A DNA stretch of 63,391 bases, filler included, from Thraustochytrium aureum (taxonomy: Eukaryota), in assembly GCA_012862495.1 (NCBI GenBank). It is 7 parts of 6 records of this genome, joined end to end, with 100 filler letters (N's around TTAATTAATTAA, not from the genome) between each part and the next. Parts side by side here need not be neighbours in the genome. Positions count along the whole stretch, not along the records: positions 1 to 31,642 come from BLSG01000223.1; 6 more parts are not named here. One strand, given 5' to 3'. Positions within the stretch are counted from its first letter, which is position 1. Each line of letters starts with the position of its first letter. The translations under genes were made by a program, and so were the position numbers. Positions 7,860 to 29,640 of the stretch are shown here, one piece after another. A model generated the notes under the pieces. The model saw nothing but the letters and a program-made list of their open reading frames with translations. It ran no database searches and was not told the DNA's origin.

Positions 7860-10800
7860 TTATTCGCTTTGTTGATGCGATTCGCTACTCGGTTCCTGCC
7901 GGGGGTTGTTGGAGGTCTGCGCGGAATGGGGCTCGGCGAGAACGGGAGCGCCAGCCGCTTTTGCCTCGGCTGGGCTTTCGGGAAAGTAAACCGGCCGTTT
8001 CAACCTTGCGCCATTCTGCGGCAGGTCGGCCAAAAATTTGCCGTCGGCGTCTGCCAGATGGTCCGCCGCAGTCTCTCGCTTGGGCTCAAGGGCAGAGATC
8101 GCTCGCAAAACGTGGCGCTCCGAACTACGAATCTCGAGGTGCATTCGCTCGTTTGAGAGCGAAACCTCGCTTCGTAGATTTTCGATTTGCGCCTCGATTG
8201 CGCGGACTCGGGATTCGATGTCACTGCGCAGCGAGCCAATCTCCGAATTGACAGTGTCTGCGCTTGCTCGAGTCTGGCGGCCAATTTCCTTTCGCAGGTT
8301 GTGAAGCATGCCTTGCCATTCAGAGTTTTCAGCGGTGGCAGCGTTAGAGTCTCCTGGCAGGAGAACGTGCATGTACGTTGGGAACAGAGCGGTGGATCGC
8401 GTCTTGCAAATGTCAATCAGCTTCTCCTTCTCGACCACGATCTTCGCCCGCAGGCGCCAAAACTCGTTCTCAGCAGAGTCGCTCACCTTCTCGTACGAGG
8501 ACGAGAGGATGGCGATGAATAGGTTGAGCAGGATGATCGGCACAAAAATCATCGACACAACAAAGATGATCCGAACCGAGTTGATGTTCTCGGTCTTCGT
8601 CGCGAGGAAGCCCTCCGGCTCGTAGGTCATGAGCATCAACAGCTGGAAAGACGTCATCAAGGCTTCCCCGACGCTAGCGTACTCGTGCGCGGCGGTGTAG
8701 AGAAGCACATACAGGGCTAGAGCCCCGGCCAGAAAAGCGAGGCTCATCACGATCCAAAAGTTGCGCGTTTCATAGAACACTGCGAGGATCATCCGCACCA
8801 AAGAGCCTGTGCCCTCGTAGGCCTGCAAGAAGTACAGTCCTCCGAAGGTCTTGAGATACAGCGAGAAGGCCAGGAAGGACCGAAACCTGTTCGAGGGCAA
8901 TGCCAGCGCGACGAGGGTGGCTATCCCACAGGCGATCGTCGCGGCTTGCAAGACATTCCAAATATCTCGCACATACTTTGACACAGTCAGCCGGCGCATC
9001 TCGGAGAACTCGCGCGCGAGAGAGTGAACGGTGAGAAGCAAGAGCCCCGTCCCAATAAGCCACAGCACTTGGTCGCTTTTCGGGTTGTTTGGGCTGATGG
9101 AGATCGTCGAGCTCGAAAACAAGCAGAATCAACAGGAGCAGCTCCATGCAATACCAGAAAAGGTCGTTACGCAGGGCATGATCCACGTACGCGCTCCACT
9201 TGAATTTGATGATGCTCCGCACGGTCTGGTTGGAGAATAGCGTGACGTCGTCAGCCTCAACAAGTCGGCTCAGCAAGCAAGTACGGTGTCGGTCGGCGTC
9301 GTTCTCGCTCGCGCGTACCAGCGACGAAGCACGCTCCCCGGAGTCGCAGGACCACACGCATCCAAGATCCGGGAACGCGTGAACGTAGTTTCGCAAGAAA
9401 AAGCGCGCCTTCGCCTTGGGCCGTCGCGAGATGATTTTCAGAATCTTGTTGCGCCGCGAAGCCCCAGTCGACACCAGATGCGCCGCGTTAATGTGGGGCC
9501 AGTCCACGCCCTCACTGGGGGAGATGTGGAACGCGGCCCGGCTCATGTCTTCGCAGTTGTGAGCGCGCACAGGCTCGTCGCCGAGCCGCGAGTCGGCCGC
9601 GACGAGCTCAAAGTCCTCGAAGAAGGCTCTGGAGCACTCGGGAAACTTGGCAACGAGCAGCCACAGCGCGCGGACAAAGCCAGCGTCAGCTTGCGCTGCT
9701 CGTGGGAATACCCATGTCAGTTCCTGCTCCCCTTCAGCATCTTCGGCCGACGATCTGGCTGCTTTGGGAGCTTGCTTCGAGGTGCCGCGCGCGGCGAGGC
9801 GACGGCTGCCCTGTTTGCAGCGTGCCTCGAGCTTGTTTCTGGCTCGGATCGACTCGGTGAGCTTTTTCAGCACGTCGTCGACTATCTGCCTCTGATTGCT
9901 GTCAATGGCAGCCTCCAAAACGCGGGAGAATGACTTGATCGGGGAAACGGGCGTGTTGAGCGCGAAAAGCGCCTTAAGGCGCTCCCCGGCATGACTACCA
10001 TGGGCAAAGTGCTCAAAAAGCAGCTCGCCCATTTGGCTCACCGAAAAGGGATCGAGCTCTTCGCCAAGGGCTCTCGCTGAGCCTTCACCCCACTCGAAGA
10101 GGAGGAGCCACTCGGCAAGCCAGGTCGGGGCGACGACCGTTCCGATCGAGATCGGACTTGGCGCAAAGCAAATTCTCTCGCTTGTGTTCCACATGACGCG
10201 GCCTTTGCTGATTCCGACTGCGACATCGCTCACGTTCCACGAGTTGGACTGCAGGGCCTTGACGCATTCTCCGGTCTTCAACGACCAAAACCTTACAGAG
10301 CCTGCCCGTCCACCGGAGATGATCACGTCGCCCTCAAGATCAACAGAGCAGATCGGATCTGTGTGGCCGCGGAGAAATCGCGAACGGCCAGCTCCCAGGT
10401 TGCTGGTCACGCCAATCATCTTGTCCGAGCTGCCCGAGACCAGAACAATGTCGTTGAGCTCGTTGAGCTCCCAAGCGAGGCACGTGACGTCGCTGCCGTG
10501 CTGAAAATCGACGTAAAAGTGGTCATCCGCGACTCCGCCGAGTTCCCAGCTCTTGACCATGGAAGAGCTGTCGCCGGTTACGAGTTTGGTCGGCCCGCAG
10601 AGCCGCATCGTCCTAATCGTGGAGGTTGAGCGTACCTGGAAAAGCTTGTCGCCGTTGCTAGACCACACAGCCACGTCGTAGCCCCCGCTGCTGGCGACGA
10701 GCTCCTGCGCGTCGGTCTCAGAATCGTCCACATACACGTCGATGCACACCACGCTCGCCGCGTGCGCGTTTCTTATGACCCTTTGGCAGGAGAGCGAGTC

Positions 10801-13800
10801 GGACTCGCCCAGTCGGCAGAGCCGCACAGAGCCGCCTTTGCACCCTATTGCGGCGAGCCCCTTCGAAAGCGCTACGCACGAAATTTGCAGCGAGGGTGCG
10901 CCTTTCTCTCCCGGCCCGGCCGCTTCCGACCCGTCAAGAAGCGGCCGTTGCGCTTCGATTTCGCTGAGTTGCAGGCATGACTTTGGCTCTGTGGTATCCC
11001 CAAACGAAACAGAATGCACGCGGACCGCTCCATCGTGAGTTGCGACCAGAAGTGTACCACAATTAAAGACCAGAAGGTTGACGATGTCGTCTGTTTGAAC
11101 CCCCGGGGCCACGTTTGGGTCCGCTTCGTCGTCGTCAAACTTAATCGTCTGAAGTCCAAGGCCCGCAGAGCAAGTCCAGACCTGGATGCAGGCTTCTGGG
11201 CTCGCGCAGACTAGCATGCCGTTCCGGAATGCAAGCGAGTTTGACTGCTCTCTTCCGTAGACCTGCAAAACGCGCAAACACAGGCGGACGTCGAGCGACC
11301 AGATTCGAATCGTGCTGTCCTCCGCCGTGCTCGCGGCGAGGTCCCCGCAGACGGCGACGGCCTGCACGCATCCTGAGTGCCCTTCCAGGATGTGGCACCG
11401 GTCGACGTCTCTGTGCCAAATGCGGAGCGTGCTGTCCATGGATCCAGAAACGAGGCAATCGCTCGTCCCGTCCAAAGTGGCGAGGCATGTCACAATGTCG
11501 CTGTGCCCGCGCAAAGCGTTTACCAGCTCAATGCTGTCGTTAAAATAAAAGACCGGAAGCGCCCGCGATCTAGTCAACCGCGCTCCGGGGATCGCTGACG
11601 AGCCAAGCGCCCTTCGCGCCCCGAGGACGAGAACGTCGCAACGCATCGTCGCATACAGGACTCCACTCCCGTCCACGGCGATACTCAAAATGGTGGCACC
11701 GGGACCAGCTCCAACAGCTGCGCCGCAGTCGAACGCTGGGAGCTCCTCCCAATCGCGGCCTGCCGGGTCCTCGAGCGTGCGCAACGGGTCGGAGAGCGCC
11801 GAGAGCAAGCCTGGCGGAGCGCGCCAGCGGTGAATCGTTGACCCTCCGACAGCAGCGACAACAGGTCCACGCACCGCTACAGTCGTGAGACAGCCCTTGA
11901 CGCTGCGACGGAAGAGTAGTTTCTTCGACGCAAGATCGTGCACGACAACTTGGCCGTTCGGGTCCCCGGTCGAACCCGACGCAACGAGAAATCCGTCCAC
12001 AGCGATGCTCGAGACGCCCCTGGAAACATGACCAACCAATGCATCGCCGGCCCAGCGCGGCCCCGGGCTCCAGCAAAGCAACGCCGGACTCTCGAGACTG
12101 GCCGAGAGCACCGTTCCGTCTTGCGCGATGGCAACCGCGTGGCCGGGCGGGAAACGCAGAAGAGGCAGCGGCGACGTCACCGGCCAACTCCCGAGTACGG
12201 GCGCAGCCTCCGCGCGCGGCGCTGCTCGGCGCTCCGCGACAGACTCGTATAGTTCACTTGTCGGTGCAATTCGCGTGCCGAGGTTTGAGTCGAGACGGAA
12301 CAACCGCTTCGCGAGCGACTCTTGCAGACGGAGAACTCTGCGGACGACGGCATTCTGCGCAATACCCCATTTCAAGCCTTTGCTGCTGATTGTTGGTCTC
12401 GGCTGCACGCCCTCAAGAGGCTGGGTTAGTAGATCCACGTGCTGCGCCGTGGCGTGCGGGGCGCTGATAATCGTCGAGTGGAAGTAGCCCATCGCCAGGG
12501 AGAGCTTGAGGCCAATGATGCTAGCGTCTACCGAGATGCTTTGGTCCTTGTGCAGAAAGGTTGGAATCTCTCCTGGAAGCACGTAGGGATGTAGTTGTAG
12601 CAAAAGCTCGTTGATCTCGCCGCCGGGCTGGATCTTGTAGGCGTCCCCGTAGTACCCGGCGCGACGCAGGCGCTTGAAGAAGTACCACAGATAGTCGTCA
12701 AGGCTGATCGCTGACGAAGGCATGAACCCGGCAAGCGCTATCGGCGCGGCCTCGGAACCTGGAGCCCACTCTAGTTTTTTCCTGAAGCCTGGCTTTTTCG
12801 CTGGATTTATCGCGCCGAACGTCATCTTGCGATTGAATCGTTCGCTCCCACTGTTTTCGACTTCTTCAAGCACGCGTGGCGTCGGCGACGCAACGGCCTC
12901 TTCGCAGCAGTGGCACTCGCAAGTCGCAAAGGCGCGGCGGGGCAGAGTGCGCCACGGCGATTCCAGCACCGTGCGCCCAGCCTGAAAAGAAGGCATCCCC
13001 TGGCGCATGACTGCCGTCGGGGTCGGGAGCAGGGATTTGGGGTTATTGCCTCCGCTTCGGCAGTGCCCACTCCCGTGCGCGCAAGAGTAGCGACAGACTA
13101 GGCAAATTCGCGAGATGCACTCGTANNNNNNNNNNNNNNNNNNNNNNNNNNNNNNNNNNNNNNNNNNNNNNNNNNNNNNNNNNNNNNNNNNNNNNNNNNN
13201 NNNNNNNNNNNNNNNNNNNNNNNNNNNNNNNNNNNNNNNNNNNNNNNNNNNNNNNNNNNNNNNNNNNNNNNNNNNNNNNNNNNNNNNNNNNNNNNNNNNN
13301 NNNNNNNNNNNNNNNNNNNNNNNNNNNNNNNNNNNNNNNNNNNNNNNNNNNNNNNNNNNNNNNNNNNNNNNNNNNNNNNNNNNNNNNNNNNNNNNNNNNN
13401 NNNNNNNNNNNNNNCTCGTCAGTCTATTGCAGGAGACCATGGCCTGCACAGCGACAACATCGCCCATGAGAATCAGCCACTGCACAAACTCTGCCAAAGC
13501 GGGAACTTCGAGCCCGTCGAGCGGAGTGCCGCCCAAGTGCACCACGAGCCGCGCGCAGTCAAATGCTCCTATCCTAATGGCAATGTCAAGCGCGGACACC
13601 TGGGCTCCTTCCAAGTGGCTTGTCAGCGGCGTATTGACGCTCAGGCGGTGGCGAAGACGCTTCTTCATCGGCAGATCGTCCGAGTCACGCACACCAACTG
13701 GGACGTTGTCGTCGTCGATCTGCAGGAACGCCGAAATCACGTCGGCATTGCAGTTCGCGACTGCGAGATGCAGAGGAGTGTATCCCGCCGCGGTTTGTTG

Positions 13801-15201
13801 ATTGATTGGGAGGTACGAGACGAGGCCAGCCGAACCCAGGGCGGCGATCCAGTCCACCCTGGCGAAGAGACCGGACTTGGACAGGAAGTGGAGCGCATTC
13901 CAGTCCTCCGAGTCGGACTGCTGCAGCAATTTGAACCGCTCTGCCGCGTCCGTTTGCGACTGAAGGAGCGTGCAAAAGACTCGGGCGTGGCTATCGGTCG
14001 CCCCACTGGCGGCAAGCATGAGAGCTGTGTGCCTATGCCGCGTAAACTTTGCCAAAAAGTCAAAAGCGCAGTCGTACGACAGAATAAGGTTGACCATTTC
14101 GATGTCGCCGAGGCCGCACGCAAGAATCAAGGCGTTCTCATCGTTGCCTGGCGACCTTGCGCGAACAAAGCTGGCGCGCGCCTTCGCGGTGGCCTCTGCC
14201 GGCTCAGTCAACGCGGTGGGGCGCGCTTTGACGCTGCGGATCACCGCTCGTGCGATTTCGACGCGCGTCGAAGACGTTGCTTTCACGAGCAGCATGAGGC
14301 TCGACTCTCCGAAAGAGGTTCGTTCATTTACGTCGATTCCCTCGACAGCCAGAAGTTGCTCAACTGCGTTCTTGTCGCCGCGATCGCAGGCTGCGTGAAG
14401 GAGCGTGCGGCCGTTGCGCTGACTGCGAGAGTTGATGCTTGCGCGACAGGCGTCGCTGAGTTGAAGCACGCCGAGAGTCAGGTAGTTGTTCATCGCTTCT
14501 TCAATATCCGGGCTGGCATGCGCGTCGCCGATGAGCCTGAGGTGCGCCTGCTCACTCGGGTCACGGTCCGCTACGTCGATCAGATACGGGAGAAGAGTGA
14601 CGCCCCGTGGCGTCAGGTCTTCCTCGATGAGGTCGCCCTCTTGAACGACCATAGGCTTGACAAGGCAGGCATTCGTCAGTAGGGAAACTCTGACCCTCGA
14701 CGCGAACGCCGATGCTGCGTCCTTTGCTGTCTGTAGTGTGGCATTGTAGTCCAGCCCGCACACAAACAGCTCGCTCATCCCGCTCCGCAGTAGCACAATT
14801 CCAATCGCGCCGATCTTGGACTCGAACGAGTCTGTCTCCTCATCTGCGGTTGGGAACATTGAGACGCGCTCCTCGCGCGGGTCGGTCCCGAATTCCCAGA
14901 CCAAGTCCCAGGGCCCCCTTTCAACCCCTTGGTGAAGGGCCGCACCGGGCGTATGCCGCACGCATCGCTCTTCCCTCACGCGGTGGTCTTCCGTGTGCGA
15001 GAGGGACACTACATGTTCCGAGTTGAGGCCAGGGTGGCTTCCGCGGAAAGAGCAGTGGTTGGGGGGATGTGCGACCACGCCGAGCACCACGACGTCGACC
15101 TTTCGCCTCGCCTGATTAATCACGCACACTACCTCGGCTGCCTTTCCTGGTTCGTCGGCGGCGACGTCAACCTGCGCGCCGACAACCAGTAGCACCCGCA
15201 T
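7860..15201 (-). CDS. Giant TRP-type cation channel: degenerate nicotinamidase/isochorismatase-like domain, ankyrin repeats, Cys/His Zn finger, WD40 repeats, 6-TM TRP domain and C-terminal coiled coil (gap 13126-13414; frameshift near 9078)
   Basis: ATG 15201 MRVLLVVGAQ...HPPNHCSF...CVRHTPGAALH...GTDP...LFVCGL. ANK: GRTLLHAACDRG, GYTPLHLAVA. WD40: GHSDIVTCL...SGSMDSTLRIW, GHSGCV, GHTDPI. TRP: IIKFKW, YVRDIWNVL, LLNLFIAILSSSYEKV, EFWRLRAKI. Removing one A in CCCGAAAAGC joins ORF 8770-15288 to ORF 7860-9122. Confidence 0.85.
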
Positions 15202-16398
15202 GCTTCCGAACCCGCAAGTTTGCGCAGCCGCCGCGACAAGAGCGCGACAAGAGCACGACAAGCAAACCACGCTGGACTCGTCAGCCACCGCGTCCCGACC
15301 GCCGGCGCCTTCCTTATTGTGAACTAGGGCGTGAGTTCTCGTCCGCGCCTAATCTGCTGCCACAACCCTGCTTCCGCGGGGCGGGGCGCCGGGGGCGCGA
15401 GAGTCACTTCCGAACGTTGCTCGCGTTGTGCGTCTGGAGATCTGGCGCGTCTAAAGACAGCGAGCGTTCTTTTTGGTTGCACGTTGCTCTCCTCCATCGA
15501 GAGGCGTCCTCGACGCGCACTTTGTGGCGGTCGGTCTGCAGCGCGATAGCAAACTATTGCACAGCACTCACACCGAGAGAGGCGCGCTCGGTCTGCGGAG
15601 ACCTCTTAATTTGCGCCGACGCGGCGCAAGATCGGCTCGGAGACCGTCAGCCAACTATTGATGGCAGCCGTTGGCACCCTCGAGCGAGCTGCACGTTTGC
15701 CTTCGAGGGCCTTGCCCTGCTGCCGATCTTTGCATTGTCATAAAACAAACCCAGTGAAATGTTGCAACGGTTTCACCGGTAACATCCCGCCCCGCTTCCG
15801 CGCATCATGCATGCATGGCATTGGCGCTCCACTCAGTGAGCAAAGCAGGGGTACTCCTGAATGCTGCGAGTGATTCCAGCATACATAGGTGGGTCAGCGG
15901 ACCAGACTGGGGCGCTCGTGCCGTCGAAGAAGTCGAGCTGCCTGGATTATAACCCACTCCACAAACACTCCTCCGAGCATGGTGCTGCGTCAGGGTGATC
16001 AAGTGCTCTTGCAAGAGGAATGCTCCGCTCCCATTGCCAACTCAGCACAACGCAGCATAGGCCAGCAAGCATCCCGATTCGTGTGCCAGAAACTCTTCCA
16101 AGGAGTCCTCCAAGCGCACACGCGCGCGACGGCGAGAGGTTCGAGTGAGTTGATCGCCAAAGGATAATGCGCCAGTCGGCCCACAAGGCTCGCGGGAAAA
16201 GTCAGATTGCTGGTCCAAGCAGGATGGCTGCGAGTCTGCCTTTGAAAAGAGGCCCGGCGACACATGGTCGCGGACGGCGAGGACAACCTTTTCATGTTCA
16301 AAGGTTTCTGTAGCGCGGGCGGCACGGAGCGTCCCACGAGTCGATGCTCAAGGAGAGCGCAAGGAGAGCGCGAATCGATGATCTACTCCACCCCGTGT

Positions 16399-16683: not shown

Positions 16684-19600
16684 TTAGTAGAGCCCATCTT
16701 GCGGGTTTTCCACGCGCGAGATGGCGAATGTGGTGAACGAGCCACAGCACAACGTCTGGATCGACGCGCCCACAAGCGAGGCCACAGCGCGCGGCAGAGC
16801 GGTGGCGGCTGTGGCGTCCTTTGCTCGGTCTGTGTTGCCCCACACATAGACGTTGCGCGCGTCGGTTAGCGCAACAGTGTGGCTCCCGCCGCACGAGACA
16901 CTGATCACTTGGATGTCTGCCCCCCAGCGCCCTAGGGACTCGACTTGACGAGGCCCCACCACACCCTCGAGCGTGCCATGGCCAAGCTGGCCCTCCGCGC
17001 CTCGTCCAAAGGTGAACACCTCGCCCTGCTCGGTGACTGCCGCGCTGTGGGAGCGGCCTGCCCCAACCGCGACGACACGGCTCGCGATGTCTACGACTGG
17101 GCGAGGCTCGGCGTTTGGTTCGTCAAATACCTCAACCCCGTATCCAAGCTGGCCCTCGCTGCCGTTTCCCCAAGCATGCAAGGCACCGTCGCCAGTGATC
17201 GCTAGCATGTGCTCGGCGCCTGCCGCGATCGACTTGACGACTTGGCACCCCGCGATATCAACTTGCGAAGGGACACTACAGGCCTCGTCGGTGCCGTTGC
17301 CCAGCTGGCCGTAGTCGTTTTCGCCAAAGGTGAAGAGACGGCCTTCGCGCGTCACGATCGCCGTGAAAGCAGCCCCGCACACGACCTCGATAGCAAAGAC
17401 GCTCTTAAGGGCGTACACCAGCCTCGGCTCGTGCAGTGAACCTGTCGCGTCGTTTGGGTCAACCTCGACGTGATACATCCAGTCGCCAGCCTCACTCTCG
17501 TAAAGTGAGCTCGGGGGGCTAGCACCAGTGACGCGCGTCAACTCGTCTTTGGTGGAGGCAGCGCCTGGCGACGCTGAGGGTTCGACTGCCTCACTCGCGC
17601 CCGGTCTTGGCGGTCGGGCTTGCTCACTTGCCCCTGCTTCATCGGACTCGGCAGTCGCGTGGTTCTCCTCGGCAATGTCGTCGAGAGCGGTGGCAAAGCT
17701 GCGCACCGAAAGGCGCTGCGACCCTGAGAGCTGCTGCATCCTCAAAAGCCGCTCGGAGGGCTTTGCCGTCTCGAACGAGAAAGCCTCGCCTTCCACCACG
17801 ACGCGGACGTTTTGGGGTCGCAGAAAAATGCCATGGTCAGGTCTTGCAGAGAAATAGCGTTTGCCATTGACCTGGCCATCGTTCTTGCCTTCGGGCTGGT
17901 CAAGCTCAACTCCCACCCACAAGCCTGGCGCGAAGTCTGTGAACCCGACGAAACGGATGACGCCACAGTCAAGCTCGCGCTTGGACACAATGTGGACTCG
18001 CCTTCCAACCTCGAGCTTTCGCTTCGCAGAGGACGACGGAGAGCCCAAAGGCTCCACGAGCTCAAATCCCGTCATTTTTGCAGAGTCGTCCTTCGCCTCC
18101 TCCTCGCCGTTCCCGTCTTCCGCCAAAGCGGAGTCCAACTCGCCTAATAGAGGCGCGGATTTCGGGGATGCTGCTCCCGAGCCCCCCTCCGTATCCTGCG
18201 CTATCTCGTCGAGCTCTGCGACGATGTGCTTGTGGAAGAGCATTAGCTCTGGCGACATGTTTCCGCGGCGCCGCGGAGGCTGCTTGCCCGACTGCTTCGC
18301 GGCAGTCAACGACGCGGCACGTTGCTTGCTCGCGAGTGCGCCGATACGGCTGGCTTGCGCCGGGACGTTTAGCTGTGGGAGGCTGGCACATTTGTGCACA
18401 GCACTTGAGCGCTCGCTGGCGACCACGCCACTCGCAGACGAGACAATCGACTTGAACAGGTTCCTGACNNNNNNNNNNNNNNNNNNNNNNNNNNNNNNNN
18501 NNNNNNNNNNNNNNNNNNNNNNNNNNNNNNNNNNNNNNNNNNNNNNNNNNNNNNNNAATGAAGGACTTGCTCGTTCCACTTGCGGCGTTTGCCCGTTCCG
18601 TTCCCGGCACCCGGCCCTTTGCATCTGCTGATCCGAGCGGCACGGCGTCGACTTTGACCTTGGCGTGGTGCTGCTCGATGCCCTCCTGCGCGCTCTTGTC
18701 CCGCTCTTCCTCCTCCCCGTCGTCTTCGTCGCTGCTTCCTGTGGCATCCCCAACATAGTTGGACGCGTCAACTATTCCTTCAAGCGAGTTGGGGCTGGCT
18801 CTGGCCAACTCTGTCGTCGTCGACGCAGTTGACGACGTCCAAACGGAGTCGAGCCCGGACGATAGAGTGCTAATCGTGTGGGCCGAAACAGTCGTTGGCA
18901 GCACCGGGGCGGGGCTCGTGTCTACTGCAAAGTAGAACGGGTTTGCCTCTGGATTCCGGCTCGAGAAAGGGTTGCCCTCAGATTCGTGCCGCCGCGGGCT
19001 GCTTGCAAAACTGGCGGCAAGCTTGCGAGCCCAATCAGGCCACGCTGAATTGCATCCAGCGCTGTCACAGCCGGCCTGAGAATCCGGGCGAGGCTCTTCT
19101 GCGCCCCCCTGGTTGTGCTTGGCTTGCTGCTCTTGCGCGGCAACGGCCACCGGTTCCCTCGAGCAGGATTCCGTCGAGTCCTGCGAGTTCCTCGCACGCC
19201 CGCAATGCACATTGCAATGCTCCCCGCCTAGGCTCTCCTCGTCCTCTGCCGAGGAATTCTCGCGGTCCGGCTGCGATGCCTGGGACGCCGCAGCTGGCGC
19301 GCGTTGCTGGCTTGCGAGCTTGCACGCCTCTGGCGCTCCCGCGACGACGCGCGGTTCACCGGGGACCTGGTCAACGGCAGAGAACGGGTTTTCGCTCCAT
19401 GAAGCCAAGGAGCTCGAGTCCCTGCGGCCCTCATACGGATTCGATCCGAGCGAGCTCGAGTCCAGATCACTGTTTCTAAACTCTTGCACTGCCCAGGGCG
19501 GCCACGCGCTGATCTCCTCGATCTGGTCGTCAAGGAGGCAGTCGTCGTCTCCGCTGAGCTGCTGGGGGCGTTCCCTTTGCTCGAGGCTTTGTTTGGGCGA

Positions 19601-21726
19601 CTGCGGACACGACGTCGGAGACTGGTCTGGCGTTGGCGAGGCCAGCCCGCGAAAGCTCCGCGAGTGGTCAGCGTAGTCGCTTACGTCGCTGCCTCGGCGG
19701 CTCAGAGTTTCGGAGAGGTCGGACCCGCGGTTCGCGCGCATGGACGCATTCGCGACGCAAGCCTCGACCTGACCAAGGTCGAGCCTGTCTTGCTCGACTT
19801 GGTCGCTGTCATGGCCACTACCTGTCTCGAACATGATTGCGTCGCTCGCGTTGAGCTCTGAAGCGCTTGCGAAGTCGCCTATGTCGCGCACTGCGGTCGA
19901 CGCGACCTCGCGGCGCAGCTGCAGTCCGGAGACCCCGCCAGCGGCATCCATGTCGCCCCACACGTAGACCTTGCCATCGGAGGAAACGGCCGCAGCGTGG
20001 GCGTCGCCGCACGAGTGTGTGCTGATGCGAATCTCTCGGTCGCAAAAGTACATGATCGGGCGCGGCATGCGATCGTGCCGCGCCTGCTTGCCGTTTCCAA
20101 GGCAGCCGTCGGCCGCTTTCACCAAACGACAAGAGATCTCCGTCGCTCCCCAAAGCAATTGTGAAGGAGTGCTCGATGTGGGCCTCGAGAAAGCGTGGCT
20201 GCTCAACGCGCTCAATGTTGTAGGCGATGAGGCGGCCGTCCAGAACGGGGTTGCGCTGGCCATCTCCAAAACGGAACGTCCGCGAGGTCTCCGCAAGGAA
20301 TCGCGACGCCACGATGCGCGCGTCTAGTTCGCTGAGCGAGCCGAGAGAGAGCTGGGAGAACCCAGACACGCTGCCGCACTTTAGCCCAGACGAATGCGAG
20401 CGCGAGCTTACCCCGCTCGAGCGGGACGCGCCGCTAGCAGCTGAGCGCGAGCTCGGCTGCTGCTGGCCAGCAATACCGCTTCTAGGTGAGTTGAAGCCGT
20501 GGCCCTTGCGGCTTCGCGGCGTCCCTGTGGAATAGTAGACGACCGAGTGCCGCTCGAGGGCAGAAGCAGACACTCGTTGCGCAGTGCGGCGACGTCGACA
20601 GACCGAACGAGGACCCGCGCTCGCGCGTTGCCAAAGCTGCGTGCATCGGCGAGCCCAGTTCGTACCCAGATGATACGCGAGGCCGCCCTGGGCTTGTCGT
20701 TTGTGGCTCGATACTGGGGGCAGAGGCGCCGTCGGTCCCCGAGGCGGACCTCTCCCGCCGCGCGCGGACACCTCTATCGCCATTGCTGTGCTCCGAAGCG
20801 CTGGCCTCTCTTTCGGCGCTGAGCTCCGAGACTTGCTTGGAGCGAATGTAGCAAAGCGCGTCTCGCTCGGCGTCTTGCGCCTCGACCCCAATGACTGTCT
20901 CTTGGATTGCAGACCACAGCTGGATGCGGTGCTGCACAGCTGGACGGTTGCAGAGCTGGTCCATGGTCGGTCTGTGACTTTCGTCAAGATCGAGCAGAAT
21001 CTGGACAACGTCTTGCAGCGCCTTGGCGTTCGGGCAAGTAGGTGTTGGCATCTCCTCATATTTTCCACGGGTGATCGCGAGTACCAGGGAGGGAATGTTG
21101 GATCCCGAGAACGGCTTGCGCAGCGTGAGGAGTTCGTAGAGCACGCAGCCGAGGGCCCAGATGTCGGACTTTGCATCATAGCGGCGCCCCTCGCAGAGCT
21201 CGGGGGAGAGATAGTAGGGCGTGCCGACGAGCGTGGCGGCGAGGTTGTGATTTGCTCGGAGGACCTTGGCGATGCCAAAGTCTGCCAGTTTGACGACACG
21301 GCGGCCGTGACCCCAGAGCAGGATGTTTTGCGGCTTGATGTCGCGGTGGAGTATATTTTGCTGGTGTACGTACCGCAGCGCTATGCATACCTGCGCAAAC
21401 CACTCCCAGACTTGTTCTACAGGTAGGGGCTCTTTCGCGGAGCTCAGGATGGTGTGCATCGACCCGCCTGCGGCCCACTCCATGACGATGTGCTGCGTGT
21501 TGCAGTCCACGAAGGAGCCGACGTACTGGATAATATTCGGGTGGTTGAGGTCGGCGAGGACCTTGACCTCGTTGACGATGTCCTCTTTCTCTTGGTCGCT
21601 CATGTTGCCCAGGCTATTCAGCATCGACTTGAGCACTAAGAGGCGCCCGTCGCTTTTCCTTCGAACGAGCTTGCAGGTCGCGAACGCACCGCGCCCAATA
21701 GTGTCATACTGCTCAAACTGGTCCAT
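16684..21726 (-). CDS. NIMA-related kinase (NEK8/NEK9-like) with RCC1 repeats and a CAP-Gly domain (frameshifts near 20590 and 20110; gap 18469-18556)
   Basis: Kinase motifs GRGAFA, LVLK, HPNII, ILHRDIKPQNI, DFG, VGTPYYLSPELCE, KSDIWALG. RCC1 repeats (FGENDYGQLG, GRGAEGQLGHG, SCGGSHTVAL). CAP-Gly WVGVELDQPEGKNDG. Confidence 0.8.
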
Positions 21727-23880: not shown

Positions 23881-24881
23881 CTACTTGGTGTCATCGTAAA
23901 ACTTGCGTGCGGCGGCGTCCATGGCCTCGCTCGGCGCCTCGACGCCCGTCCACAGCTCCATCTGCTTGAGGCCCTGCTGCACGAGCATGTCGATTCCCTC
24001 AAAGGTCTGGCAGCCGCAGTTTCCTGCCTGCACCAGCAACGTGGTGCGCCGCGGCCGGTACGCGGCGTCAAAGACCACCGGCTTGTACGCTGCAAGCGCG
24101 GCTTCGTCGGGCATGCGGAACTCGGCCGAGGCAGGCACCGTGCCGATGATGGCATCCACAGGCCCCAGCTCGCTCAAATCGGTGGCCACAGTGCCTCCAA
24201 AACGGTCCGCGACGCGTTGAGCCTTGTCGTGCGACCGGTTGTACACGACAAGCTCGAGGCCGAGCTGCTTGACGCAATAGCTCGCGGACAACGCGGTGCC
24301 GCCCGCGCCGACGACAAGGGCGCGCCCGTGACGCTGGCCAGCATCGGCGCGCTGCTTGAGAGGCGCCTCGAGCAGGCGAAAGATGCCGACCCAGTCCGTG
24401 TTGTCCCCAACGAGTCTCCCGTCTTGGGTCTTGATGATGGTGTTTACTGCCCCGATCGCCTGCGCGGCCTCGGAGAGCGAGTCAAGGAACTGGGAAACGA
24501 TCTCCTTGTGGGGTATCGTGACCGAGGCGCCTCTAAAGCGAGAGCTCGAGAGGACTGCGCGAAGGTAGTCGACGTGAACCGTGTCACACAACGTGTAGTG
24601 TTTGCAGAGTCCCAGTGCGCGAAAACCGGCGTTGTGCATGGCCGGCGAAGGCGACAGCTGGATCGGGTGGCCAAACAGGCAGTAGTGATCCGGCATTGGT
24701 GCCCCGATGGCGGCGCACAGCTCGACCACTGCTGCGGCCGGCCTTTGCGGGCTGACGAGCAAAGGGCCCAGCGACGAGGCGCACAGCGCGGTAGCTAGGG
24801 CCGCGGATGCAGCGACGACCTCCCCCGCGTCGGTCGGAGCAGGCTCGACAATGATTGCCATCCCTGGCGCAGCGCCGGCCA
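23881..24881 (-). CDS. Shikimate dehydrogenase (AROM-like SDH domain); the 5' region extends into gap 24882-25819 and possibly to ATG 25973
   Basis: LFGHPIQLSPSPAMHN, GASVTIPHK, IGAVNTI, GDNTDWVG, VGAGGTA, YNRS, GIDMLVQQG motifs. Confidence 0.9.
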
Positions 24882-28611: not shown

Positions 28612-29640
28612 CTACTCCTTGAAGTTGTCGTCGTCGTCGTCTGCGTCGTCGTCGTCGCCGTTGTGGTAGCTGTGCACGCTGCCTGTGGACGTGAAACGCG
28701 CCGCAGAGGCAAGCGCGTTGCGCGAAGGGTCGAGGTTGAACACCTGTTTGTAGAGCAAGGTCACCTGCTCGACCGAGAGCAAGATGATCATCGCATGCGG
28801 GGCGCAGCGGCCGTAGTAGGCGCCAAAGCCGGTCCAGAGCGCGAAGAAACCCTCCTTGCGCAAGATCTGCGAGGCGCAGTCTGCAACGCCCCGGTACGCC
28901 TTGAGCCCGGTGGCGGGGTCGATGCGCGCGTTTTGCAGGCGGGACTTGATCATGTCGAACGGGAGCGAGAGGAAGGCGCAGCAAAACCCCGCCACGGCGC
29001 TCGAGGCCAGACGGGTCTGGAGCGAGTCCGGGTCCTTGGTGACCTTGACGATGGCCTGCTTGGCCTCGTCGTAGCAGGCGAGCATGCCCACGTTCATGCT
29101 CATGCCCCGCAAGATGTTTGGCATCAGGCCGCTCCAGAGCCCACGCAGGCCCTCGCTCCGGCCGATGCGCATCAGCGCGTCAAACACGTTGCGGTAGTTG
29201 CGGCGGTCTGCGAGAGCTTTGGACCCGTCCGATTGCATCCGGACCAGCGCGACGTCAAAGGGCGTGCCGATGCAGACGGCGATGGCGCCGCTCGCGAGCC
29301 CAGACATGGTCTTCTGCCAGAAGGGGATCTCCTGCCCGCCGTTGATTTCGACGAGCTTGTTCGAGAACGAGCGGTGGAGCCCGATGCGCGCCGTGCCGTA
29401 CGTGGCCTGCCGCGTCAGCGCAGCGGTGAGGCCCGAGTAGAGGCCGGTGACGCCCTCGGCCTGGACCGTGCTGCGCAGGATGTTGAGCGTCGTGGGCTTT
29501 GCCTGCCCTGGCGCGAGGCTCTCGCCGGCGAGCTGCAGGCGCACCTTGGTCAAGTCGATGGGATGAATCACGGTGGACGCGATGCACGCAGCCACGCCGC
29601 CGCACACGAACGGCTGCACCGCCTCGGCTATTGATGCCAT
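28612..29640 (-). CDS. Mitochondrial carrier, 2-oxoglutarate/malate or dicarboxylate-tricarboxylate carrier type
   Basis: Three Px[DE]xx[KR]xR signatures (PIDLTKVRLQ, PFDVALVRMQ, PFDMIKSRLQ), plus RQATYGTARIG and RRNYRNVFDAL. Confidence 0.92.
   Translation of the reverse strand: MASIAEAVQPFVCGGVAACIASTVIHPIDLTKVRLQLAGESLAPGQAKPTTLNILRSTVQAEGVTGLYSGLTAALTRQATYGTARIGLHRSFSNKLVEINGGQEIPFWQKTMSGLASGAIAVCIGTPFDVALVRMQSDGSKALADRRNYRNVFDALMRIGRSEGLRGLWSGLMPNILRGMSMNVGMLACYDEAKQAIVKVTKDPDSLQTRLASSAVAGFCCAFLSLPFDMIKSRLQNARIDPATGLKAYRGVADCASQILRKEGFFALWTGFGAYYGRCAPHAMIILLSVEQVTLLYKQVFNLDPSRNALASAARFTSTGSVHSYHNGDDDDADDDDDNFKE

Follow-up and report, generated by a model that had tools for sequence, protein, structure and literature searches.

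The window, i.e. the whole stretch of 63,391 nucleotides of Thraustochytrium aureum DNA that was analyzed, carries on its minus strand a single open reading frame (ORF) of approximately 2,400 amino acids, which comprises a PncA (nicotinamidase)-like domain, ankyrin repeats, a Cys/His-rich motif, a RyR-like remnant, WD40 repeats and a Group-1 TRP-like channel. Residues 1-205 are a real PncA-fold domain devoid of the catalytic residues. The fusion of a dead PncA domain to ankyrins, WD40 repeats and a TRP-like channel in one ORF, as proposed previously from the sequence alone (hereafter the sequence-only reading), was thus supported. Sequence comparison suggests that the window copy is a paralogue with shuffled domains and an eroded pocket, carried on a TRPW-like channel. 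The best overall explanation, to which we assign a probability of roughly 55%, is that relatives lacking the catalytic lysine bind nicotinamide, while the window domain is a structural remnant and its channel is gated otherwise. The features of the gene are given below together with the evidence for each; X1, X2 and X3 denote contigs of public sequencing runs, which were compared with the window assembly.

14587..15201, minus strand: PncA/nicotinamidase-fold domain, residues 1-205 (phmmer, NCBIfam, HMM, model, fold searches, residue alignment)
13417..14469, minus strand: ankyrin-repeat region, residues ~245-595 (Pfam Ank_2, E 2.7e-21; colinear with the first ankyrin block of the family)
13126..13414, no strand: 289 N in the assembly, a gap spanned by one X1 contig
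12898..13125, minus strand: second half of the Cys/His-rich motif (family alignment), a possible zinc finger with no Pfam match
12481..12744, minus strand: probable eroded RyR repeat, located where the relatives have the first of their RyR repeats
10144..11550, minus strand: WD40 repeats that probably form parts of two propellers (Pfam)
9078..9260, minus strand: pre-S1 segment and first transmembrane helix (hydropathy, frames)
9077..9077, no strand: extra base causing an apparent frameshift, absent from X1, X2 and X3 contigs
8409..9076, minus strand: S2-S6 of the channel domain and a TRP-helix-like segment (Ion_trans, E 7.6e-13; TIGR00870, E 1.7e-9; hydropathy)
7860..8345, minus strand: C-terminal tail with a probable coiled coil (~8070-8345; weak Pfam coiled-coil matches below cut-off) and the stop codon

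The PncA-like pattern, which the sequence-only reading had followed from ATG 15201 over about 180 residues, extends over residues 1-205. Residues 1-204 matched the A. baumannii nicotinamidase 2wt9 in a phmmer search (E=1.2e-4), and the domain matched NCBIfam PRK11609 (E=4.9e-4). An HMM of 49 PncA enzymes scored the domain with 69.9 bits compared to 4.3 bits for the best of 1,000 shuffles; these enzymes are the aligned subset of 80 metagenome loci fetched with motifs of the query, so that the match at HPPNHCSF was selected for. An AlphaFold2 model built on the PncA alignment reached a pLDDT of 86.7 and leans on this alignment, as a single-sequence model (pLDDT 33) was unusable. With the model as query, Foldseek ranked 2wt9 first (E 1.3e-11, TM 0.73), VIA gave a Z score of 22.0 with 195 residues aligned at an rmsd of 3.0, and nicotinamidases occupied the top ranks in both searches. 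The modelled domain shows the isochorismatase-like alpha/beta fold of active nicotinamidases, consistent with the retention of fold motifs noted before. Of the two matches anticipated by the sequence-only reading, that to a nicotinamidase structure was obtained, while the Pfam scan of the channel ORF revealed no match to Isochorismatase (PF00857).

Next to this intact fold, the active site is largely replaced. Using the numbering of M. tuberculosis PncA in the available text of PMC3025910, the catalytic triad is substituted at all positions (Asp8 to Gly8, Lys96 to Phe104, Cys138 to Ala154 or Thr155, the latter choice depending on the aligner owing to a one-residue deletion at this site). Two metal ligands are gone, with Asp49 lost and His71 replaced by Arg79; His51 and His57 are retained as His45 and His49. 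The loss of the triad and of two metal ligands had been recognized by the sequence-only reading and was confirmed by alignment, but that list was incomplete since the pyridine pocket has disappeared as well (Phe13 to Val13, Trp68 to Arg76, Tyr103 to Val113, cis-Ala134 to Asp151). In total, only two of the 11 key positions are retained, and the domain possesses neither the triad nor the Asp/His/His metal site nor the aromatic pocket with cis-Ala134 that characterize an active nicotinamidase. Trp68Leu and Phe13Leu are described in the same source as substrate-binding mutants of M. tuberculosis PncA with very low activity. Because aromatic cage and two metal ligands are replaced, canonical binding of nicotinamide by the window copy appears unlikely.

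A HMMER search with residues 1-250 against 1.84 billion representatives yielded 117 matches, 25 of which, picked by length, were scanned with Pfam. Ten displayed ankyrins downstream of a PncA-like domain (P0008, P0009, P0010, P0011, P0021, P0030, P0047, P0072, P0084 and P0089; the domain of P0084 was detected solely by the custom PncA HMM). RyR repeats were present in nine of the ten, Ion_trans in six and a polycystin domain in one more, and two end past the RyR repeats; WD40 repeats were found by Pfam in none. The search for the layout suggested by the sequence-only reading therefore returned PncA-ankyrin-channel relatives, but none with WD40. Sequences with a named source come from the stramenopile Platysulcus tardus, from one MMETSP and one further EukProt transcript and from CAK9073272.1 ('Ryanodine receptor 3'); this name and 'nicotinamidase/pyrazinamidase' mask the family in databases.

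The N-terminal 595 residues of the window protein are colinear with this PncA-ankyrin-RyR-ankyrin-PKD2-like family. BLAST against P0021 gave 29% identity over 643 columns (E 3e-56), and the family HMM scored 316.9 bits. The window shares with the family an N-terminal PncA domain lacking the catalytic lysine, an ankyrin block and the Cys/His-rich motif, the last of which scored 7.0 bits compared to 5.8 bits for the best of 500 shuffles and is weak by itself. A suspected likeness of this motif to a UBR box received no confirmation from Pfam. Instead of tandem RyR repeats, the window contains one remnant at 12481..12744, which was aligned by position and is not significant alone (repeat HMM 0.1 bits, under several shuffles; no Pfam match). 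Past the RyR position similarity stops: in the relatives a second ankyrin block comes next, then a PKD2-like channel with a long S1-S2 loop (174-223 residues in six, 100 in one), whereas in the window protein these places are taken by WD40 repeats and a channel whose S1-S2 loop is short (approximately 12 residues).

Further searches retrieved no orthologue with the same PncA-ankyrin-WD40-TRP layout beyond near-identical strains. A word-index search with residues 1-250 against proteins of 1,122-3,570 residues gave none among 1,342 candidates, but this search is weak because it missed relatives later found by HMMER; the same type of search with the channel domain against longer proteins gave none among 1,940. 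An alignment search over proteins of 4,674-5,000 residues returned 19 unrelated ankyrin proteins and nothing else. In the ESM Atlas, residues 1-330 of the window protein retrieved ankyrin clusters alone, below 0.9, and residues 1-235 of P0089 retrieved ordinary nicotinamidase clusters. The 80 loci of the metagenome scan carry stand-alone PncA-like ORFs of 180-343 residues, and in 14 viral loci the PncA part alone was matched.

Several of the retrieved proteins show other domain combinations. P0030 (2,003 residues) joins PncA (Lys to Ala, Asp to Cys) and ankyrins to an EF-hand and a polycystin/PKD channel without RyR repeats; its PncA domain lies apart from the main clade of fused domains, so that P0030 may have arisen by an independent fusion or may be a family member that has diverged. 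P0047 (2,009 residues) harbors an RGS domain between its RyR repeats, hinting at G-protein coupling. P0004 (964 residues) consists of four tandem PncA-like domains, each without the catalytic Lys and Cys. PncA is also combined with a protein kinase in P0091 (Lys to Met), with NUDIX in P0067 and with a flavoprotein in P0046.

The membrane part of the window protein belongs to a different channel type. Its best match in the PDB was insect Inactive (E 2.1e-8), and among solved structures the pore is nearest to insect Inactive and TRPA1. Five of the six helices passed the hydropathy threshold. Pfam and PDB searches with the pre-S1 region were without match, and the segment 11551-12258, which appears beta-rich, had no Pfam match. 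TRPW channels, which combine WD40 with a Group-1 TRP domain, were defined and reported across eukaryotes in a June 2026 preprint (bioRxiv 10.64898/2026.06.15.732144). In accordance with the description available there, the window protein has WD40 repeats N-terminal to a six-helix Group-1 TRP-like membrane domain, short extracellular loops and a TRP helix; TRPW also has a C-terminal coiled coil, for which the tail of the window protein gave weak Pfam matches below cut-off. The window protein is predicted to be a TRPW-like, calcium-permeable cation channel. TRPW as described in the accessible text differs in carrying ankyrins between WD40 and membrane domain, whereas the window protein starts with PncA and ankyrins.

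Comparison of the fused PncA domains revealed a common loss. The catalytic lysine is missing in all 13 fused rows (11 clusters at 90%, window included) but retained in 87 of the 105 other PncA-like domains whose alignment includes this column, and its loss was probably one ancestral event rather than eleven. In P0008, P0021, P0072 and P0089 the lysine is replaced by alanine and all ten other key residues are intact; P0030 retains nine, with Asp replaced by Cys. Six fused clusters including the window are pocket-eroded, each in a different manner. The four pocket-intact relatives are more conserved in PncA (48-68% identity) than in the ankyrins (29-49%), whereas the window differs from the family to a similar extent in both (25-33% and 26-36%, respectively). 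In a tree of 52 rows, 35 of which were drawn at random from 88 others, a 99/92 branch set 16 of the 17 fused domains and look-alike fragments, window included, on one side and left P0030 outside. The end branch of the window domain is the longest (1.6 compared to a median of 0.62) and joins a second long branch, P0084. Strong conservation of the pocket in spite of a missing lysine is the pattern that would be expected of a binding-only domain, and an eroded pocket on a long branch that of a remnant. On these grounds P0008, P0021, P0072 and P0089 are candidate sensors rather than the window copy, whose domain is likely a remnant of an ancestral nicotinamide sensor.

A sequence of events compatible with these patterns would start with an ancestral fused nicotinamidase that lost only its catalytic lysine, by which hydrolysis would stop and nicotinamide would still be held by metal and aromatic cage. 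The bound state might be relayed via ankyrin and RyR repeats to the pore. In some paralogues the pocket would have been lost too, and finally PncA, ankyrins, Cys/His motif and first RyR repeat would have been joined to a WD40/Group-1 TRP channel, whereby a Group-1-like channel would have acquired the N-terminal module of a Group-2-like one. The window domain may now be a folded cap or a surface for protein contacts, and its channel could be gated by other means, for example by lipids at a transmembrane pocket as in TRPW1, for which the accessible part of 10.64898/2026.06.15.732144 reports gating by a fatty acid of bacterial origin that acts at a membrane pocket. The broader proposition is tentative and in our estimate falls somewhat short of an even chance: that protists possess an undescribed family of TRP/PKD2-like channels whose built-in receptor for nicotinamide is a nicotinamidase minus one catalytic lysine, and that the module was later moved to a TRPW-like channel and eroded.

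If true, NAD turnover of the cell itself, its prey or its neighbours would be coupled to calcium entry, and nicotinamide gating as in animal TRPV channels would have been reached by a different route. Intact stand-alone enzymes, fused domains with loss of the lysine only and fused domains with eroded pockets such as the window copy would form a natural series, the second after TRPM2. Since the lysine-deficient domains are approximately 230 residues long and expressible alone, nicotinamide gating of calcium channels in unicellular eukaryotes is directly testable. The main value of the window protein would lie in the evidence it provides for module shuffling between Group-2 and Group-1 TRP channels.

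Against the remnant reading, we counted the retention of the fold motifs and of two histidines, which might point to a site for another ligand or for a metal. In such a rewired site, His45, His49 and nearby acidic residues would bind another ligand or a metal and modulate the channel. Both histidines lie inside a well-kept motif of an intact fold, and P0084 shows a similar Arg...Glu pattern at the positions of Trp68 and His71. However, the residues at these positions vary among the six fused members with eroded pockets, which therefore share no new pocket, and the second histidine is retained in almost all rows, eroded or intact. We consider a rewired site unlikely.

Clearly improbable is the mechanism favoured by the sequence-only reading, in which the dead window domain binds nicotinamide or nicotinate and thereby gates the channel. 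It draws on the nearest fold being that of nicotinamidases, on nicotinamide gating of the invertebrate TRPV channels OSM-9/OCR-4 and Nanchung/Inactive (accessible text of PMC5064019) and on Inactive as the best solved relative of the pore. Yet the equivalents of Phe13, Trp68, Tyr103, cis-Ala134, Asp49 and His71 are all replaced, and it is the metal that tethers nicotinate in the A. baumannii enzyme, according to the part of PMC3025910 at hand. Binding of either compound is unsupported for the window copy also because its domain forms the longest branch in the tree, and the sensor idea fits the relatives that lack the catalytic lysine alone much better. The analogy to animal TRPV channels holds insofar as nicotinamide does gate TRPs, but it is loose: in the accessible text of PMC12808645 the ligand site is a cavity in the ankyrin domain of Nanchung and not a PncA-like fold, and these closest solved relatives of the window pore are without a PncA domain.

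For the family, we gave very little weight to the idea that the lysine-to-alanine members are chanzymes, i.e. slow active enzymes turning over the channel ligand locally. In its favour, four of the 11 clusters retain Asp, Cys, cis-Ala and all metal ligands, of which the Cys would be dispensable for binding alone, and P0072 has a lysine one residue upstream of the catalytic position. On the other hand, hydrolysis by M. tuberculosis PncA Lys96Gln was undetectable according to the available text of PMC3025910. The idea is inapplicable to the window copy, which has no nucleophile at the respective helix.

All readings of the window copy as a channel subunit depend on the continuity of its gene. 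The frame opens at ATG 15201 on the minus strand with no in-frame Met upstream, crosses the ankyrin repeats and enters the 289-N gap. Beyond the gap, 1,348 open codons lead via the WD40 repeats to the first membrane helix, and the remainder of the Ion_trans domain lies in another frame of the window assembly. One X1 contig joined 13125 to 13415, its shorter flank being 71 letters long, and a second X1 contig covers 12140-13082; none of the contigs reaches across the whole gene, and no RNA data set carrying it was listed. The window may derive from the X1 sample; X2 and X3 were counted once because their rows are identical and look like one data set. The homologous module picks up directly past the gap with approximately 39 residues skipped in comparison to the relatives, and the real gap therefore probably measures about 117 nt (39 codons). 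Together, the bridged gap and the absence of the extra base at 9077 from the run contigs establish one ORF, so that the continuity across gap and frameshift presumed by the sequence-only reading was borne out. An intron as cause of the frameshift was dropped, since the DNA contigs are without the extra base. That the PncA-ankyrin and WD40-TRP halves are separate genes, an assembly chimera or a pseudogene is the least probable reading of all, even though the gap size was deduced from homologues only, no single contig runs from end to end and the layout is unmatched among ten fused relatives, for the Cys/His motif carries on in frame beyond the bridged gap into the long open stretch, and two data sets are free of the frameshift.

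Among the coding differences listed between strains, 10 of 14 (X1) and 13 of 24 (X2) are synonymous, with eight more outside those listed; as the listed differences are mostly synonymous, the channel gene looks maintained at the sequence level. Three replacement and four synonymous differences listed for the PncA-like domain are too few to assess constraint on the pocket. Outside the ORF, small indels relative to X1 or X2 contigs at 15264, 15470, 7752 and 15734-15739 indicate scattered indels in assembly or strain.

With respect to known systems, the classic example of a TRP channel on which a metabolic enzyme became a ligand sensor is TRPM2 with its NUDT9-H domain, a case that has been proven experimentally. 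NUDT9-H is a C-terminal NAD-metabolite enzyme domain whose activity was lost in some lineages. The window protein resembles TRPM2 in design principle and differs in fold, ligand and position of the domain. PncA/Pnc1 enzymes (PDB 2wt9, 3r2j, 9u8m, 3pl1) share fold and motif order with the window domain, which differs in the replaced triad, two metal ligands and aromatic cage and in its fusion to a channel.

A second June 2026 preprint (bioRxiv 10.64898/2026.06.15.732245) describes a C-terminal isochorismatase-like domain in 14 of 18 Craspedida TRPVs of choanoflagellates. As in the window, the PF00857 enzyme superfamily is fused to a TRP channel, but there the domain is C-terminal and sits on a TRPV, and the likeness is one of description. 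Its main text, in the part available, notes a NUDIX fusion to TRP and mentions neither nicotinamide nor nicotinamidase, and likewise neither RyR nor stramenopiles. In the accessible text of both preprints, the description of TRPW mentions neither a PncA nor a RyR domain. The relatives were first suspected to be oomycete PKDRR proteins, which also combine a PKD-type channel with tandem RyR repeats; this was ruled out by the layout given in the available text of PMC4820453 and PMC7399828, in which the RyR repeats are C-terminal to the channel, in contrast to the N-terminal PncA, ankyrins and RyR of the relatives. The window likewise deviates from PKDRR, with no RyR match in its tail and no long S1-S2 loop. 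Hydrolase, nicotinamidase, isochorismatase and WD40 are unmentioned in the accessible text of both PKDRR papers.

The literature searched, with most subscription journals outside its coverage, contained no paper describing an N-terminal PncA-channel fusion. The PncA-ankyrin-WD40-TRP architecture thus seems undescribed, as the sequence-only reading had supposed, although supplements of both preprints may list further architectures. The novelty was somewhat overstated insofar as TRPW and the choanoflagellate TRPV isochorismatase are published, and an enzyme domain on a TRP channel, even one of the isochorismatase superfamily, is already known.

The window as a whole is eukaryotic DNA in which long frames run without introns and N-gaps are frequent. 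From 31643 on, repeated linkers of 44 N, 12 bp and 44 N demonstrate that it consists of joined contigs; neighbours beyond this position are therefore not true context. Just upstream of the channel gene, positions 16687-21726 on the minus strand encode, in successive frames, a protein kinase domain and then two sets of RCC1 repeats with a CAP-Gly domain between them, which probably constitute one NEK-like gene with assembly breaks, the NEK label stemming from sequence reading. The other neighbours are ordinary, with a cysteinyl-tRNA synthetase at 271-2538 on the plus strand and a shikimate dehydrogenase (23884-24876) and a mitochondrial carrier (28615-29640) on the minus strand.
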